A stretch of DNA of 64,000 nt from Shigella phage ESh21, in sequence record ON528731; one strand, given 5' to 3'. Position 1 is the first letter of the stretch. Each line of letters opens with the position of its first letter. The notes beneath the pieces were generated by a model, which did not search any database, was not told the DNA's origin, and saw only the letters and a list, made by a program, of their open reading frames with translations. Made by a program: the position numbers and the translations under genes. Below, one piece after another: positions 43,879-48,614 of the stretch.

Positions 43879-43955
43879 CTCTGTTTAGCTCAGCTTGGTA
43901 GAGCGTTCCGTTTGGGGCGGTAAGGCCAGAGGTTCAAGTCCTCTAACAGAGACCA
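43879..43955 (+). tRNA. tRNA-Pro (anticodon TGG)
   Basis: manual cloverleaf: acceptor CTCTGTT/AACAGAG, T-loop TTCAAGT, CCA encoded. Confidence 0.7.
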
Positions 43956-43962
43956 AATTAAT

Positions 43963-44037
43963 GTCGTAGAAGGCAAATGGTTAGCCACCTGACCTTCAAT
44001 CAGTTGCTCGCGGGTTCGAATCCCGTCTACGACTCCA
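43963..44037 (+). tRNA. tRNA, anticodon probably TTC (Glu), tentative
   Basis: acceptor GTCGTAG/CTACGAC, T-arm GCGGG-TTCGAAT-CCCGT, CCA encoded; anticodon loop CCTTCAA has C at position 33. Confidence 0.55.
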
Positions 44038-44122
44038 AATTTGACAGAAGACCAAATACAGCAAACAACTTTTACTTTTCGCGCATAGAAAACATAAAAA
44101 GCTTGGTCTGGTCATTAAGAAT
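44038..44122 (+). repeat. structured inter-tRNA spacer element (family CAGAAGACC...GGTCTGG), copy 1
   Basis: begins right after CCA; conserved ends shared with copies at 44200, 44604, 44685. Confidence 0.6.
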
Positions 44123-44199
44123 CGCGGGTATAGAGAAAGGGCGTCTCACATGTCTCATTAGCATGGCAACGGTTGGTTCGACTCCAACACCCGCCTCCA
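44123..44199 (+). tRNA. tRNA with anticodon CAT (Met or Ile2 or fMet)
   Basis: anticodon arm CATGT-CTCATTA-GCATG, T-loop TTCGACT, CCA encoded; C1-C72 mismatch. Confidence 0.6.
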
Positions 44200-44282
44200 A
44201 ATTTACAGAAGACCGTTTACAGCAATTTAAAAACAATTTTATCGGAAAATTAAAATGAATACGGTCTGGTAATGTTAAACAT
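44200..44282 (+). repeat. structured inter-tRNA spacer element, copy 2
   Basis: AAATTTACAGAAGACCGTTTACAGCAATTTAAA...ACGGTCTGGTAAT. Confidence 0.6.
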
Positions 44283-44359
44283 GGTTAGGAAGCACATAAG
44301 GCATGTGCGGTCGGCTGTTAACCGAATGGCACAGGGTTCGAATCCCTGACTAACCGCCA
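44283..44359 (+). tRNA. tRNA-Asn (anticodon GTT)
   Basis: D-arm GCAC/GTGC, anticodon loop CTGTTAA, T-arm CAGGG-TTCGAAT-CCCTG, CCA encoded. Confidence 0.7.
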
Positions 44360-44369
44360 AAATTTAAAT

Positions 44370-44457
44370 GCGTCGTTATCCCGTAGATGGAAGCGGTGGC
44401 GACTGTAAATCGCTTGTCATTACGACTCGGTAGGTTCGACTCCTTCACGGCGCACCA
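44370..44457 (+). tRNA. tRNA-Tyr (anticodon GTA), long variable arm
   Basis: 88 nt; anticodon arm GGCGA-CTGTAAA-TCGCT; variable stem GTC/GAC; resembles E. coli tRNA-Tyr layout. Confidence 0.6.
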
Positions 44458-44463
44458 AATAAA

Positions 44464-44541
44464 GGTTATGTAGTTTAATCTGGTTAAAATACCTCCCTGT
44501 CACGGAGGAAGATGTGGGTTCGAGTCCCATCGTAACCGCCA
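44464..44541 (+). tRNA. tRNA-Asp (anticodon GTC)
   Basis: anticodon arm CCTCC-CTGTCAC-GGAGG, T-loop TTCGAGT, CCA encoded. Confidence 0.7.
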
Positions 44542-44603
44542 ATTTTGAGAAGGGCTTTTTTAGCCCCTCCCTTAAAGAGTTCTTGTGAGTATTCTTTAAA
44601 GGA

Positions 44604-44685
44604 GCAGAAGACCAAATTCAGCAAGCAACAAAAATATTTCAAGCCAATTAATTTGAAAAATTTAAAACTTGGTCTGGTTCCAACA
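44604..44685 (+). repeat. structured inter-tRNA spacer element, copy 3
   Basis: GCAGAAGACCAAATTCAGCAAGC...CTTGGTCTGGTTCC. Confidence 0.6.
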
Positions 44686-44821
44686 AATTTACAGAAGACC
44701 GTTTACAGCAATTTAAACAATCTAATTCTCTATAAAAGAAAGGGAGAAGGTTCGATTCCTTCACACGTTACGGCGTGTTGGTGTAATGGTAGCACTTAAG
44801 ATGATATGGTCTGGTAATCCT
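44686..44821 (+). repeat. structured spacer element, copy 4, carrying a tRNA-like insertion
   Basis: same ends as copy 2 but interior replaced by a T-arm and D-arm-like segment. Confidence 0.55.
44741..44800 (+). pseudogene. tRNA-like fragment (T-arm + acceptor 3' strand followed by acceptor 5' strand + D-arm; permuted or remnant)
   Basis: GAAGG-TTCGATT-CCTTC then ACACG-loop-CGTGT then GG-TGT-AATGGTAG-CAC; no anticodon arm found. Confidence 0.4.
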
Positions 44822-44822
44822 C

Positions 44823-44954
44823 TTTGCAGTGACTTATGGAGCTAATATATCGTCCCATGAGTGCCGATGAATCTCTTGAGCATGATTCTAGATTAGCTTA
44901 CTAAGAGATGACTCTACAAACCCTTTAGCAAGGTTTGCGTAGGTTACTGCAAAG
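44823..44954 (+). ncRNA. candidate structured RNA element inside tRNA array
   Basis: long-range inverted repeat TTTGCAGTGAC ... GTTACTGCAAAG enclosing inner stem TCTCTT...AAGAGA; no ORF. Confidence 0.3.
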
Positions 44955-44964
44955 ATGATTTAAT

Positions 44965-45040
44965 GGAAGTGTAGCAGAATGGTGATGCGGCAGACTTTTA
45001 ATCTGACAGGCGATGGGTTCGAATCCCTCCACTTCTACCA
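44965..45040 (+). tRNA. tRNA-Lys (anticodon TTT)
   Basis: acceptor GGAAGTG/CACTTCT, anticodon loop CTTTTAA, T-loop TTCGAAT, CCA encoded; imperfect T-stem. Confidence 0.6.
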
Positions 45041-45044
45041 AAAT

Positions 45045-46983: not shown

Positions 46984-47009
46984 GGGTTCGAATCCCTTAT
47001 TCTGCACCA
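46933..47009 (+). tRNA. tRNA-Arg (anticodon ACG)
   Basis: acceptor GCAGAAT/ATTCTGC, D-arm GTTC/GAGC, anticodon loop CTACGAA, T-loop TTCGAAT, CCA encoded. Confidence 0.65.
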
Positions 47010-47028
47010 ATTACTAGAAGGTAATTAT

Positions 47029-47256
47029 ATGCGTAAACTCATTATTGAAAAGCATAAAGATGCTGACAAGATTGAAACAACACAAGTTGGGGACACTGAC
47101 TTCATTCTTGTAGGTTGGAAATGTGACCCAATAGCAGCTATGAAGGTTGTTCATGGTTTTGCAGGAATTGAATTTAATCAAATCATATTTGAAACGCTAT
47201 TACCAGAAAATCAGGATACGTGTAATAACGCATATGTCCTGACAAGAGTTCGTTAG
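47029..47256 (+). CDS. small ORF between tRNAs (75 aa)
   Basis: RBS GAAGG; fits exactly between tRNA-Arg and tRNA-Gln, stop overlapping next tRNA start. Confidence 0.35.
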   Translation: MRKLIIEKHKDADKIETTQVGDTDFILVGWKCDPIAAMKVVHGFAGIEFNQIIFETLLPENQDTCNNAYVLTRVR

Positions 47257-47330
47257 GGGATTAGTTTACAAGGTTAAAACCTCGGTCTTTGAAATCGAAG
47301 AAGTTGGTTCAATTCCAACATCCCCCGCCA
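47255..47330 (+). tRNA. tRNA-Gln (anticodon TTG)
   Basis: D-arm GTTT/AAAC, anticodon arm TCGGT-CTTTGAA-ATCGA, T-arm GTTGG-TTCAATT-CCAAC, CCA encoded; weak 1-72 pair. Confidence 0.6.
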
Positions 47331-47331
47331 A

Positions 47332-47410
47332 TACTCCATTACTCCAATTGGCAGAGAGGCCAGACTTAAAATCTGTGTTATGTATCGGTTCGAATCCGAT
47401 ATGGAGTACC
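47332..47410 (+). tRNA. tRNA with anticodon TAA (Leu-type anticodon, short variable arm; tentative)
   Basis: acceptor ACTCCAT/ATGGAGT, anticodon loop CTTAAAA, T-arm ATCGG-TTCGAAT-CCGAT, A73, CCA encoded. Confidence 0.55.
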
Positions 47411-47416
47411 AAATAT

Positions 47417-47492
47417 TAGCAGTGTAGCATAACTGGCAATGCTCCAGCCTCTGAAGCTGAACGATTAAGGTTCAAATCCTTACGCTGCTGCC
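47417..47492 (+). tRNA. tRNA-Gln (anticodon CTG)
   Basis: D-arm GCA/TGC, anticodon loop CTCTGAA, T-arm TAAGG-TTCAAAT-CCTTA, CCA encoded. Confidence 0.65.
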
Positions 47493-47524
47493 ACTTCTAA
47501 GGGTTCTTACGAGAGTCCTTAAAT

Positions 47525-47601
47525 GTGGCCTTATCATAAATGGATAATGACCCATGCTGTGAACATGGTCTATACGGGTTCGATTCCCGTAGGTCACCCC
47601 A
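47525..47601 (+). tRNA. tRNA-His (anticodon GTG)
   Basis: D-arm TCAT/ATGA, anticodon arm CCATG-CTGTGAA-CATGG, T-arm ACGGG-TTCGATT-CCCGT, CCA encoded. Confidence 0.7.
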
Positions 47602-47608
47602 ATTCAAT

Positions 47609-47684
47609 AGCTCAATTAGCTTATATGGTTAAAGCGCGTGTCTGAAAAACATGAGAACAGGGTTCAAATCCCGATGGGCTACCA
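47609..47684 (+). tRNA. tRNA-Phe (anticodon GAA)
   Basis: anticodon arm CGTGT-CTGAAAA-ACATG, T-loop TTCAAAT with bulged T-stem, CCA encoded. Confidence 0.55.
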
Positions 47685-47699
47685 ATTTATAGGTGCATA

Positions 47700-48434
47700 A
47701 TGAAAGAGATGACAGGACAAGGTAAAGAGATTTTCAGTCTCCTTAAATCCGGTAACGGGTTCTCTAACCCTCTTATTACTGGTGCAGCAGTTCTTGGTGG
47801 TACAGTTGCTGCTTCTCAGTCATTAGTAACTTCTATTGGTTCTGTATCAGACCCAGCTACCCAGCAAATTCTTATTGCTGCTGGCTTGACAACTGCCTTA
47901 CTAAGCAGCTTTACAACAAGCCTTGGTAGCACCACTTCAACGACAACTACTTTAACTGACTATGGACAGAAGTCTGTAGATGAGTTTTCACAACGTATGC
48001 AAGTAGCTAAAGGTTACTCTAACGTTATGGGAGCAGCAGGTGAACAAGTCGGTTGTACACCGTTTAGTGGAATCATGGGAGTTGCTACAGAGTACGGTAA
48101 CAAAGCTATGGATTTGATTAATACATCCATAGACGCTGTAAATGGCGTTCTAAGCGATTTACAAGATGCGATTGATAAAGGACTAGACACTATCTCTGAA
48201 CTCGCTACACAAGCTGTTACAGCGATTAATGAGGGTATGGCAAAGATTACTGCCTACGCTAATGAAGTGGCTCAGATGATTGCAGATGAAGCAGCCCTGA
48301 TTGCTGACTACCTTAAAACGAATATTAACGGTTTTCTTGCTAATGTCTTACCAGATTGGTTTGATGATGCTTGTAAAACTGGTGTGATTGATACAATCGC
48401 AACTCCAGAGATGAAAGATGCTCTAAACAAATAA
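47700..48434 (+). CDS. Ser/Thr/Ala-rich hypothetical protein embedded in tRNA array
   Basis: 244 aa, RBS AGGTG; low-complexity middle (SLGSTTSTTTTLTD). Confidence 0.5.
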   Translation: MKEMTGQGKEIFSLLKSGNGFSNPLITGAAVLGGTVAASQSLVTSIGSVSDPATQQILIAAGLTTALLSSFTTSLGSTTSTTTTLTDYGQKSVDEFSQRMQVAKGYSNVMGAAGEQVGCTPFSGIMGVATEYGNKAMDLINTSIDAVNGVLSDLQDAIDKGLDTISELATQAVTAINEGMAKITAYANEVAQMIADEAALIADYLKTNINGFLANVLPDWFDDACKTGVIDTIATPEMKDALNK

Positions 48435-48437
48435 TTT

Positions 48438-48530
48438 GGAAGATTAACCCTAAAAGGTAAGGGAGCAGTTTGCTAAACTGCCAGTAACCGAGAAATCGGC
48501 GTACCAGTTCAAGTCTGGTATCTTCCTCCA
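48438..48530 (+). tRNA. tRNA-Ser (anticodon GCT), long variable arm
   Basis: 93 nt; D-stem CCC/GGG, anticodon arm GCAGT-TTGCTAA-ACTGC, variable stem CCG/CGG, T-arm ACCAG-TTCAAGT-CTGGT, CCA encoded. Confidence 0.7.
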
Positions 48531-48537
48531 AATTAAT

Positions 48538-48614
48538 GTGTCGGTGGCAGAAATGGATTATGCGCCTGTCTGCAAAACAGGTATATAAGGGTTCAAGTCC
48601 CTTCCGATACTCCA
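48538..48614 (+). tRNA. tRNA-Cys (anticodon GCA)
   Basis: anticodon arm CCTGT-CTGCAAA-ACAGG, T-arm AAGGG-TTCAAGT-CCCTT, CCA encoded. Confidence 0.7.

Follow-up and report, generated by a model that had tools for sequence, protein, structure and literature searches.

We analyzed an array of transfer RNA (tRNA) genes at positions 43879-48614 of a 64,000-nucleotide stretch of Shigella phage ESh21 (sequence record ON528731), which is referred to below as the window. Three genes of this array with leucine anticodons have a class-I body without the long variable arm, and most likely specify ordinary leucine donors, aminoacylated by the host enzyme. An atypical gene of 83 nt is most likely a tRNA-Trp(CCA), and four small RNAs located among the first tRNA genes are probably Y-RNA-type partners of a Ro60-like protein encoded directly upstream. 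We are fairly confident of this explanation as a whole. Nothing in it is categorically new; it links the array to a Ro60/Y-RNA system.

ARAGORN detected 25 tRNA genes in the window, all on the plus strand within the above range and none elsewhere. The Rfam tRNA model added tRNA-Glu(TTC) at 43963-44034 (53.7 bits), which ARAGORN had missed, and the 83-nt gene was supported by covariation, giving a total of 27. The Rfam model was passed at the gathering score (threshold, 29 bits) by 23 of the 27 genes and in a permissive scan by tRNA-His. The CCA end was encoded in 26 genes, with tRNA-Ser(TGA) as the sole exception. A sequence-only reading of this DNA, in which cloverleafs had been folded by hand, had likewise arrived at 27 genes with nearly universal CCA ends, and the prediction programs yielded exactly the anticodons it had listed. 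It had allowed that its hand assignments might be off; these proved right, as neither other anticodons, long arms in the leucine genes, nor pseudogene scores appeared in ARAGORN, Rfam, or the tRNAscan-SE annotation of the near-identical phage Sf17.

The genome in the window is that of an Ounavirinae (Felix O1-like) phage. The 4.9-kb array stretch matched 300 phage records, the best being Citrobacter and Shigella Mooglevirus genomes (about 91% identity). The Mooglevirus GenBank records annotate the same array including the three tRNA-Leu genes, and the layout in Felix O1 is identical; the tRNA array as such is already known. The Felix O1-like relatives have the same genes in the same order at approximately 85-91% nucleotide identity. 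The tRNA counts given for such phages were 22 in Felix O1, 23 in wV8, and "26 tRNAs for 19 amino acids" in Shigella phage Sf14. The 83-nt gene and the four Y-RNA-like elements were unannotated in all of the Felix O1-like records examined.

The genes for tRNA-Leu(TAG), tRNA-Leu(CAA), and tRNA-Leu(TAA) were 78, 78, and 79 nt long including CCA, and showed no extra stem in the ARAGORN drawings. The same three anticodons and lengths are annotated in Sf17. The drawings agreed with the sequence-only reading in A73 and in variable regions of 5-7 nt; two of its start positions (46101 and 46678) were exact, and the third (47332) was one base early, the true start being 47333. The Rfam scores were 38.9 (TAG), 44.0 (CAA), and 48.3 bits (TAA). 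The long variable arm defining class-II tRNA was absent from all three, whereas E. coli leuW, leuZ, and leuX (85, 87, and 85 nt) and the tRNA-Leu of phage T5 (85 nt) are all long-armed, with a stem-loop of 13-15 nt in place of the 5-7 nt region and 82-84 nt instead of 75-76 nt without CCA. Otherwise, the phage genes shared the core of E. coli tRNA-Leu: U8 was present, the D stem had 3 bp, and the D loop, AAUUGG(C/U)A(G/A)A, matched in length and register, thereby placing A14, A15, G18G19, and A20a. Leucine anticodons, A73, U8, U48, a standard T loop, and the D loop AAUYGGUAGA with A15, G18G19, and A20a were common to the class-II genes of E. coli and T5 and the genes in the window. In all three of the latter, the last base of the variable region was U (U48), the T loop was UUCGAAU, the discriminator base was A73, and G3:U70 did not occur.

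E. coli leucyl-tRNA synthetase (LeuRS) depends on A73, A15-U48, G18G19, and A20a, and needs neither the anticodon nor the long arm; truncated variants remain active, and the arm is regarded as typical of tRNA-Leu but dispensable for charging (review PMC9976931). The hinge elements read by LeuRS, namely A15:U48, G18G19, A20a, and a T loop suited for G18:U55, G19:C56, and U54:A58, were present in all three genes. In the relative Sf14, isotype models of tRNAscan-SE also rank Leu top for all three genes (Sf14 paper). Because the LeuRS-read elements are kept, the three genes most likely encode ordinary leucine donors with a class-I body that read UUR and CUN codons and are aminoacylated by host LeuRS. 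The leucine codons in 66 open reading frames (ORFs) of the window were CTT (352), TTA (292), CTG (229), TTG (173), CTA (140), and CTC (70), and the relative use of TTA and CTA was reported to be higher in the phage than in the host (Sf14 paper). The earlier idea of unusual isoacceptors supplying A/T-ending codons fits this picture, in that the LeuRS identity set is kept and TTA, CTA, and CTT are heavily used.

In the orthologues of other genera, compensatory changes preserved the pairing of the tRNA-Leu stems. An example is the anticodon stem of Leu(TAG), which was CCATC/GTTGG in the window, TCTCG/CGAGA in Felix O1, CCTCG/CGAGG in FM4b, and GCTTC/GTAGC in Arno18. The Leu(TAG) anticodon arm in the window (46129-46147, CCATC-CTTAGAA-GTTGG) was identical to the Val(TAC) arm located 500 nt away (46628-46646) except for one anticodon base, including a shared U-U mismatch, and differed from the Leu(TAG) arm of Felix O1 and SUSP2. 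Array members of the Moogle lineage may thus have undergone gene conversion or an anticodon switch with one another. Sf17 carried a quite different Leu(TAG) gene at the same position (2904-2980 of the locus) with a CCCAATTGGAAGAGG-type D arm, indicating that single tRNA genes of the array are swapped wholesale between close relatives.

The short arm was present as the sequence-only reading had stated, but was not unique to this phage. The tRNA-Leu genes in seven Ounavirinae arrays were all 77-79 nt including CCA, and one Enterococcus phage of Herelleviridae had a tRNA-Leu of 76 nt. A scan of IMG/VR with the D-arm 15-mer CCCAATTGGCAGAGG found at least 120 loci. Among the matches listed, 112 of the 121 occurrences of the 15-mer lay in tRNA-Leu genes of 74-78 nt, whose variable region was 5 nt in 99, 6 nt in 12, and 4 nt in one. 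These 112 genes all had A73 and U48, comprised 106 distinct sequences, and included every leucine anticodon family. Bacteria were scanned with one genome per species for the 15-mer followed by a T loop 24-54 nt further on, a range that permits class-II spacing. All 123 bacterial matches listed had class-I spacing (27-29 nt), and none had class-II spacing. In 99 of the 120 bacterial loci listed, the class-I gene was the only tRNA within 8 kb and had a G+C-rich acceptor stem. Such stand-alone genes occurred in Mycobacterium, Nocardia, Gordonia, Rhodococcus, Corynebacterium, Arthrobacter, and relatives; in Actinomycetota, they carried the anticodons UAA, CAA, and UAG. About 10 of the listed loci, from cyanobacteria and other sources, were tRNA arrays with 12-30 genes, and the cyanobacterial arrays held sets of class-I tRNA-Leu with all anticodons. 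The scans pick one D-arm type and do not give the fraction of class-I genes among phage tRNA-Leu.

The D arm of this class-I lineage is CCCAAUUGGCAGAGG. The features taken to define membership, which are the D-arm 15-mer, a variable region of 4-6 nt ending in U, A73, and a leucine anticodon, were found in the window, where Leu(CAA) carried the exact 15-mer, the D arm of Leu(UAA) was two positions off (UCCAAUUGGCAGAGA), and that of Leu(UAG) was related to, yet distinct from, the 15-mer. As judged from these sequences, class-I tRNA-Leu is a large lineage common to phages, tRNA arrays, and Actinomycetota chromosomes. The long arm has been said to be universal in tRNA-Leu except in animal mitochondria (review PMC9976931). 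For Mycobacterium tRNA clusters, it was remarked in passing that an encoded tRNA-Leu(TAG) has a short variable loop (PMC6582537), long loops in only three of the five tRNA-Leu of M. tuberculosis are implied by PMC11541572, and a review of non-canonical tRNAs leaves phages unmentioned (PMC7609411). The literature searched gave only passing remarks on short-arm tRNA-Leu in phages, which is no proof of its being undescribed, and the Felix O1-like papers searched did not mention the short variable arm. The class-I tRNA-Leu of animal mitochondria likewise lacks the long arm and is recognized via A73 and D-loop elements, while the phage genes differ from it in having canonical D and T arms, and from the host tRNA-Leu genes examined (leuW, leuZ, and leuX) in their short arm. 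The short-arm genes are real, are probably functional, and represent a widespread but poorly documented tRNA-Leu variant.

The 83-nt gene had been described in the sequence-only reading as having a perfect acceptor stem and T arm with an odd anticodon region, possibly CCA for Trp. The perfect acceptor stem and a T arm were indeed seen. Nine bases, CCTCCAAAA, were closed by a 5-bp stem, and were equally readable as a 7-nt loop CUCCAAA above a C31-A39 mismatch; an A49-C65 mismatch was also present. The connector between the acceptor and D stems was GAUGUUAA, 4-6 nt too long where two bases are expected. The gene did not have the canonical geometry of a 2-nt connector, a 5-bp anticodon stem, and a 7-nt loop. 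We take the loop CUCCAAA to be that of E. coli tRNA-Trp, and the connector insertion adjoins positions 9 and 24, presumably the sites of the Hirsh-type miscoding mutations of tRNA-Trp.

BLAST found the 83-nt gene in 244 phage records (232 near full length), almost none of which had an annotation over it. The matches spanned Felixounavirus, Mooglevirus, Suspvirus, and one Pectobacterium phage; a 14-mer scan of viral contigs for the gene gave mostly chance matches, which were filtered before use. When a cloverleaf of 19 pairs was laid over the 10 distinct sequences, 99.5% of the cells were paired and 8 of the 19 pairs showed double-sided changes. None of 500 shuffles matched these values, and slid controls contained no double changes. 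The anticodon stem was GUAAG/CUUAC in the window, AACGG/CCGUU in Felix O1, and GUAGG/CCUAC in Arno18; the D stem alternated between CAC/GUG and CUC/GAG, and the T-stem pair 50-64 between G-C and U-A. The UCCAA core, G73, and the CCA end were invariant. The anticodon CCA was flanked by U33 and A37. The Trp identity elements known from the literature, G73 and A1-U72, were both present in the window, with the first pair being G-U in some relatives and G-C in Arno18.

The native gene was not called by ARAGORN even at lowered thresholds and had no Rfam match at permissive E-values. Deletion of any 4-6 bases of the connector was sufficient for ARAGORN to call tRNA-Trp(cca) with default settings; the failure of the predictors is due to the conserved extra connector bases. 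The next matches of a covariance model built from the 83-nt gene were phage tRNA-Trp genes, and the annotated 71-nt tRNA-Trp of T5 and a 71-nt gene of a viral contig (7993-8063) showed the same 5-bp stem closing CCUCCAAAA. ARAGORN missed the T5 gene (15178-15248 of the locus) and the viral 71-nt gene as well. The T5 gene shares G73 and the encoded CCA with the 83-nt gene, whereas it has a reduced D arm and no connector insertion in place of the full D arm and 4-6 extra connector bases. The tRNA-Trp of Erwinia phage Hena2 had C31-C39, and several other phage tRNA-Trp genes had C-C or C-A at 31-39; opening of the final pair of the anticodon stem thus seems to recur among phage tRNA-Trp genes. 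Among the eight arrays examined, that of Hena2 had a canonical tRNA-Trp and no 83-nt gene, and the other seven showed the reverse. Trp was the sole amino acid otherwise missing from the array, and tRNAs for 19 amino acids were counted in the Sf14 paper. The CCA/Trp guess thus gained support from G73 and A1-U72, the UCCAA core, the ARAGORN call after deletion, and the T5 loop. The 83-nt gene is most likely the tRNA-Trp(CCA) of the array in a remodelled body, which would complete the set of 20 amino acids, and the insertion and the two C-A mismatches could make it a poor or specialized adaptor.

Two further observations concern this gene. A -10-like TATAGT (45662-45667), kept in relatives, abuts its 5' end, with a TTGACA at 45629; if this site served as a promoter, transcription would start inside the tRNA. 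Read-through of UGA by the odd tRNA-Trp was also considered and rejected, as no long in-frame extensions followed TGA in the window; all of them followed TAA and were neighboring genes.

Four direct repeats (families D11, D12, and D18) lay among the first tRNA genes, each beginning with AGACC-NN and WWCAGCAA and ending with NN-GGTCT and GGT. The NN pairs of the closing stem varied in a compensatory manner (AA/TT, GT/AC, AA/TT, and GT/AT), and the closing stem of element 1 was recovered in the minimum-free-energy fold. Element 4 consisted of the closing stem, CAGCAA, a T arm (44746-44762), an acceptor-like hairpin (44763-44778), a D arm (44781-44795), and a tail. The succession of T arm, acceptor-like hairpin, and D arm is that of the tRNA-like module of the Y RNA YrlA (Chen et al. 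2014, PMC4201824). Element 4 resembled YrlA (PMC4201824) throughout, from the 5' strand and variable region via this module to the 3' strand, and in its location on the same strand within 1.1 kb of a gene with the Ro60 fold; the shorter companion elements resembled YrlB. The T arm of element 4 gave a 19-bit tRNA match in the permissive Rfam scan. The element was kept in six Ounavirinae genomes, and its hairpin covaried, with A-T, T-A, or C-G at one pair and G-C or T-A at another; the hairpin stem in HP1 was wholly different and longer. A weak YrlA match at 47547-47670 was discarded, as it just spans tRNA-His and tRNA-Phe. The possibility that element 4 is a remnant of two adjacent tRNA genes, a 3' half followed by a 5' half, was rejected, since a covarying hairpin spans the junction and DUF2828 genes in unrelated contigs are accompanied by elements of this design.

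The ORF at 42229-43713, directly upstream of the array on the same strand, ended 330-1100 nt before these elements. Its AlphaFold2 model (pLDDT 89.4) was compared with the PDB by Foldseek, and the nine best matches were all Ro60/TROVE proteins (E 6e-9 to 9e-6, about 500 aligned columns, TM 0.42-0.63), including Ro60 of Thermus phage phiLo, Xenopus Ro60, and Deinococcus Rsr. The Ro60 fold, a helical-repeat ring with a vWA domain, was found through these matches. At the sequence level, Pfam gave DUF2828 and DUF7788 but not TROVE, which distinguishes this protein from the known Ro60/Rsr partners of Y RNAs, and a phmmer search of the DUF2828 protein against PDB chains found no Ro60. A 2024 preprint on the Felixounavirus Bas63 described gp130 as a Ro60-like protein, encoded upstream of the tRNAs, that counters the Ppl defense system, and guessed that some "tRNA genes" are Y RNAs, none of which was named.

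The pairing of a Ro60-fold gene with a Y-like RNA recurred in diverse viral contigs. At least 12 of 80 viral loci with homologues of the Ro60-like protein (about 40% identity) carried elements of the same design, 112-133 nt long, with a 7-9 bp closing stem of unrelated sequence, YCMGCAA, and then T arm, tetraloop hairpin, D arm, and a tail of G(A/G)UA. A MAFFT alignment of these diverse elements was too poor around the hairpin and D arm for a covariance model, and a descriptor of stem and motif with strand and shuffle controls was used for this reason. The descriptor gave 75 matches in 42 of the 80 loci on the gene strand, compared with 13 on the opposite strand and 9 in shuffled sequences; as it selects for pairing, the scan is no evidence of covariation in itself. 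Structure, position, and recurrence suggest that the four elements are probably Y-RNA-type partners of the upstream Ro60-like protein.

Under the favored explanation, sigma-70-type promoters would drive rightward transcription of the array, and processing would yield 27 tRNAs, which would top up the host pool for the A/T-rich codon usage of the phage and probably buffer it against the loss of host tRNAs. The three tRNA-Leu, from a lineage with variable regions of 4-7 nt, would be charged by host LeuRS, because this enzyme ignores the anticodon and the long arm and reads A73 and the retained D-loop and hinge elements. The 83-nt gene would supply tRNA-Trp(CCA), and the four small RNAs would partner the Ro60-like protein. 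The analysis established which genes are present, their structures, conservation, covariation, and distribution, and the fold of the protein; expression, charging, decoding, and the binding of RNA by the protein are inferred.

Several observations weigh against this explanation. Of the three leucine genes, Leu(TAG) scores lowest with Rfam and contains a U-U mismatch within the anticodon stem. In its native form, the 83-nt gene is accepted by neither ARAGORN nor Rfam, its insertion is at a structurally critical site, and it carries the two C-A mismatches and the -10-like motif at its 5' end; it could be non-functional in translation despite its conservation. The YrlA model RF02553 did not match the Y-like elements at E-values up to 10, and the GNCGAA motif was absent from them; where YrlA has the published motif GNCGAA(N0-1)G, the window elements have YCMGCAA. 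For this reason, we class the elements as resembling Y RNAs in their presumed mode of action and do not treat them as established members of the YrlA family. Thermodynamic z-scores of the folds against shuffles were unremarkable (-0.4 to -1.8), so that no element stands out by folding energy and the case rests on covariation and distribution. Data on expression, processing, or aminoacylation of the array genes were not found in the literature searched.

It is conceivable, if rather unlikely, that the short Leu genes, the 83-nt gene, or both are nuclease or toxin decoys, sponges, or slowly decaying pseudogenes instead of adaptors. The literature does tie phage tRNA arrays to the evasion of anticodon nucleases, anticodon-loop differences from the host are listed in the Sf14 paper, and tRNA-like stable RNAs are annotated in the T5 array. 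While the failure of the 83-nt gene in both predictors would also agree with such a role, compensatory changes keep every stem paired across genera, the CCA ends and discriminator bases are kept, and the UCCAA core and G73 do not vary. Moreover, the 83-nt gene would cover the one amino acid otherwise absent from the array, it and a canonical Trp gene replace each other among relatives, and decoy and adaptor roles can coexist.

A wider reading, to which we give a similarly low probability, treats the locus not just as a supply of codon-matched tRNAs but as one integrated module, in which the Ro60 homologue, the four Y RNAs including a permuted tRNA mimic, and tRNAs unlike those of the host would act together, with these tRNAs being shaped to evade host tRNA-directed defenses. 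The tRNAs in question would be the class-I tRNA-Leu and the insertion-bearing tRNA-Trp with its opened anticodon stem, in which the connector insertion beside positions 9 and 24 might alter decoding.

The idea that the 83-nt RNA is a misfolding-prone or tRNA-like ligand or substrate of the Ro60-like protein, not a Trp donor, appeared less probable still. Misfolded small RNAs and tRNA-like Y RNAs are ligands of Ro60 proteins, the gene shares its strand with the Ro60-like gene and lies 2 kb 3' of it, alternative folds would be favored by the non-canonical connector and the mismatches, and the speculation in the Bas63 preprint that some "tRNA genes" are Y RNAs points in the same direction. Unlike YrlA-type RNAs, however, this RNA has its arms in the usual tRNA order and ends in a free CCA, and it lacks the closing stem and CAGCAA motif of the four Y-like elements. 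Its closest relatives are phage tRNA-Trp genes including that of T5, near which no such protein is annotated. Finally, charging of the Leu-anticodon tRNAs with another amino acid, by which the phage would recode CUN/UUR codons, is very improbable: the combination of a class-I body and a leucine anticodon does have the look of the reassigned yeast mitochondrial tRNA-Thr(UAG) and Ashbya tRNA-Ala(UAG) (PMC7609411), and the Leu(TAG) arm is nearly that of Val(TAC), but all three genes have A73, the D-loop signature of tRNA-Leu, and no G3:U70, synthetases other than LeuRS and those for serine and alanine mostly read the anticodon, here that of Leu (PMC9976931), the isotype models favor Leu, the short body carries all six Leu anticodons (112 Leu versus one Ala among the viral matches listed), and the same body serves as the stand-alone chromosomal tRNA-Leu(UAA/CAA/UAG) of many Actinomycetota.

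Table 1. Coordinates of the tRNA genes, Y-RNA-like elements, and associated features in the window (MFE, minimum free energy).
Feature	Position	Strand	Basis
Sigma-70-like promoter, TTGACA-18-TATAGT with TG, 27 nt 5' of first tRNA	43823..43852	+	11/12 consensus; consensus match only
Ro60-like protein gene	42229..43713	+	Pfam DUF2828 + DUF7788; PHROG 850 "RNA-binding protein"; AlphaFold2 + Foldseek
tRNA-Pro(TGG), encoded CCA	43879..43955	+	ARAGORN; Rfam 57.3 bits
tRNA-Glu(TTC), encoded CCA	43963..44037	+	Rfam 53.7 bits; called by ARAGORN in relatives
Y-RNA-like element 1, stem AGACCAA/TTGGTCT, CAGCAA motif, no tRNA-like domain	44049..44114	+	Repeats, MFE fold, compensatory differences
tRNA(CAT), annotated Met, loop CTCATTA, encoded CCA	44123..44199	+	ARAGORN
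Y-RNA-like element 2, stem AGACCGT/ACGGTCT, CAGCAA motif	44210..44272	+	Repeats, MFE fold, descriptor
tRNA-Asn(GTT)	44283..44359	+	ARAGORN, Rfam
tRNA-Tyr(GTA), long variable arm, 88 nt	44370..44457	+	ARAGORN
tRNA-Asp(GTC)	44464..44541	+	ARAGORN, Rfam
Y-RNA-like element 3, stem AGACCAA/TTGGTCT, CAGCAA motif	44609..44680	+	Repeats, MFE fold, descriptor
Y-RNA-like element 4, YrlA type, stem AGACCGT/ATGGTCT, CAGCAA motif, tail GGTAA	44696..44817	+	Conservation, hairpin covariation
tRNA-Lys(TTT)	44965..45040	+	ARAGORN, Rfam
tRNA(CAT), second copy, Met or Ile2	45045..45121	+	ARAGORN, Rfam
tRNA-Ile(GAT)	45124..45199	+	ARAGORN, Rfam
Sigma-70-like promoter, TTGACA-17-TATAGT, inside array	45215..45243	+	11/12 consensus; consensus match only
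tRNA-Arg(TCT)	45449..45525	+	ARAGORN, Rfam
Atypical 83-nt tRNA, read as tRNA-Trp(CCA), G73, encoded CCA	45668..45750	+	Covariation, conservation; no ARAGORN or Rfam call as is
tRNA-Ser(TGA), long variable arm, no encoded CCA	45764..45853	+	ARAGORN, Rfam
tRNA-Leu(TAG), class-I body, variable region TGTTT (5 nt), D loop AAUUGGUAA, A73	46101..46178	+	ARAGORN, Rfam
tRNA-Lys(CTT)	46186..46261	+	ARAGORN, Rfam
tRNA-Ala(TGC)	46268..46343	+	ARAGORN, Rfam
tRNA-Gly(TCC)	46350..46424	+	ARAGORN, Rfam
tRNA-Thr(TGT)	46431..46507	+	ARAGORN, Rfam
tRNA-Val(TAC)	46602..46676	+	ARAGORN, Rfam
tRNA-Leu(CAA), class-I body, variable region ATTAGT (6 nt), D arm UCCC-AAUUGGCAGA-GGA, A73	46678..46755	+	ARAGORN, Rfam
tRNA-Arg(ACG)	46933..47009	+	ARAGORN, Rfam
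tRNA-Gln(TTG)	47255..47330	+	ARAGORN, Rfam
tRNA-Leu(TAA), class-I body, variable region GTTATGT (7 nt), D arm CUCC-AAUUGGCAGA-GAG, A73	47333..47411	+	ARAGORN, Rfam
tRNA-Gln(CTG)	47418..47493	+	ARAGORN, Rfam
tRNA-His(GTG)	47525..47601	+	ARAGORN; Rfam permissive
tRNA-Phe(GAA)	47609..47684	+	ARAGORN, Rfam
tRNA-Ser(GCT), long variable arm	48438..48530	+	ARAGORN, Rfam
tRNA-Cys(GCA)	48538..48614	+	ARAGORN, Rfam

Other genes and segments of the array showed peculiarities of their own. The first tRNA(CAT) (44123-44199) carried U at position 37, where a purine is expected, together with U73 and what looks like a C1-C72 mismatch, and was absent from the Rfam table at the gathering score; Met, fMet, and Ile2 are its candidate identities. 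The lowest tRNA score (33.2 bits) was that of tRNA-Ser(TGA), for which the best permissive Rfam match was tRNA-Sec (39 bits, under the threshold of 47 for that family). Three protein-coding ORFs lay within the array. The ORF at 46771-46983 encodes 70 amino acids, is rich in Cys and Arg, and overlaps tRNA-Arg(ACG) at its 3' end; that at 47029-47256 (75 amino acids) had no family match; and that at 47700-48434 (244 amino acids) matched DUF7217, annotated as a membrane protein in relatives. The gaps at 44830-44960, 45200-45448, and 45854-46100 (130-250 nt) contained no tRNA, ORF, or family match and may host further small RNAs. A weak match to permuted tmRNA was located at 45141-45327 in the permissive Rfam scan (30 bits, threshold 47). 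By inspection of the sequence, an imperfect palindrome (about 30 nt; core, TAAGGGTTYTT..GAGAGTCYTTAAA) recurred at 44572-44599, 45410-45444, 46020-46045, and 47495-47526, ahead of tRNA-Arg(TCT), tRNA-His, and Y-like element 3, and may be a processing or regulatory hairpin.

The window offers a clean counter-example to the textbook long arm in all tRNA-Leu, and represents a large and barely described lineage of short tRNA-Leu in phages, tRNA arrays, and Actinomycetota chromosomes. Enterobacterial phages deliver leucine tRNAs with a body unlike that of every host tRNA-Leu, which bears on substrate recognition by LeuRS in vivo, on the possible escape of phage tRNAs from host tRNA-targeting defenses, and on the design of orthogonal or minimal tRNA-Leu scaffolds. 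The tRNA-Trp candidate, if true, would alter the published statement of 19 amino acids, and it exposes a systematic failure of standard predictors to find the tRNA-Trp genes of phages. The four Y-like RNAs, for their part, are concrete candidates for the hypothesis raised with Bas63, in which a Ro60-like protein counters Ppl.

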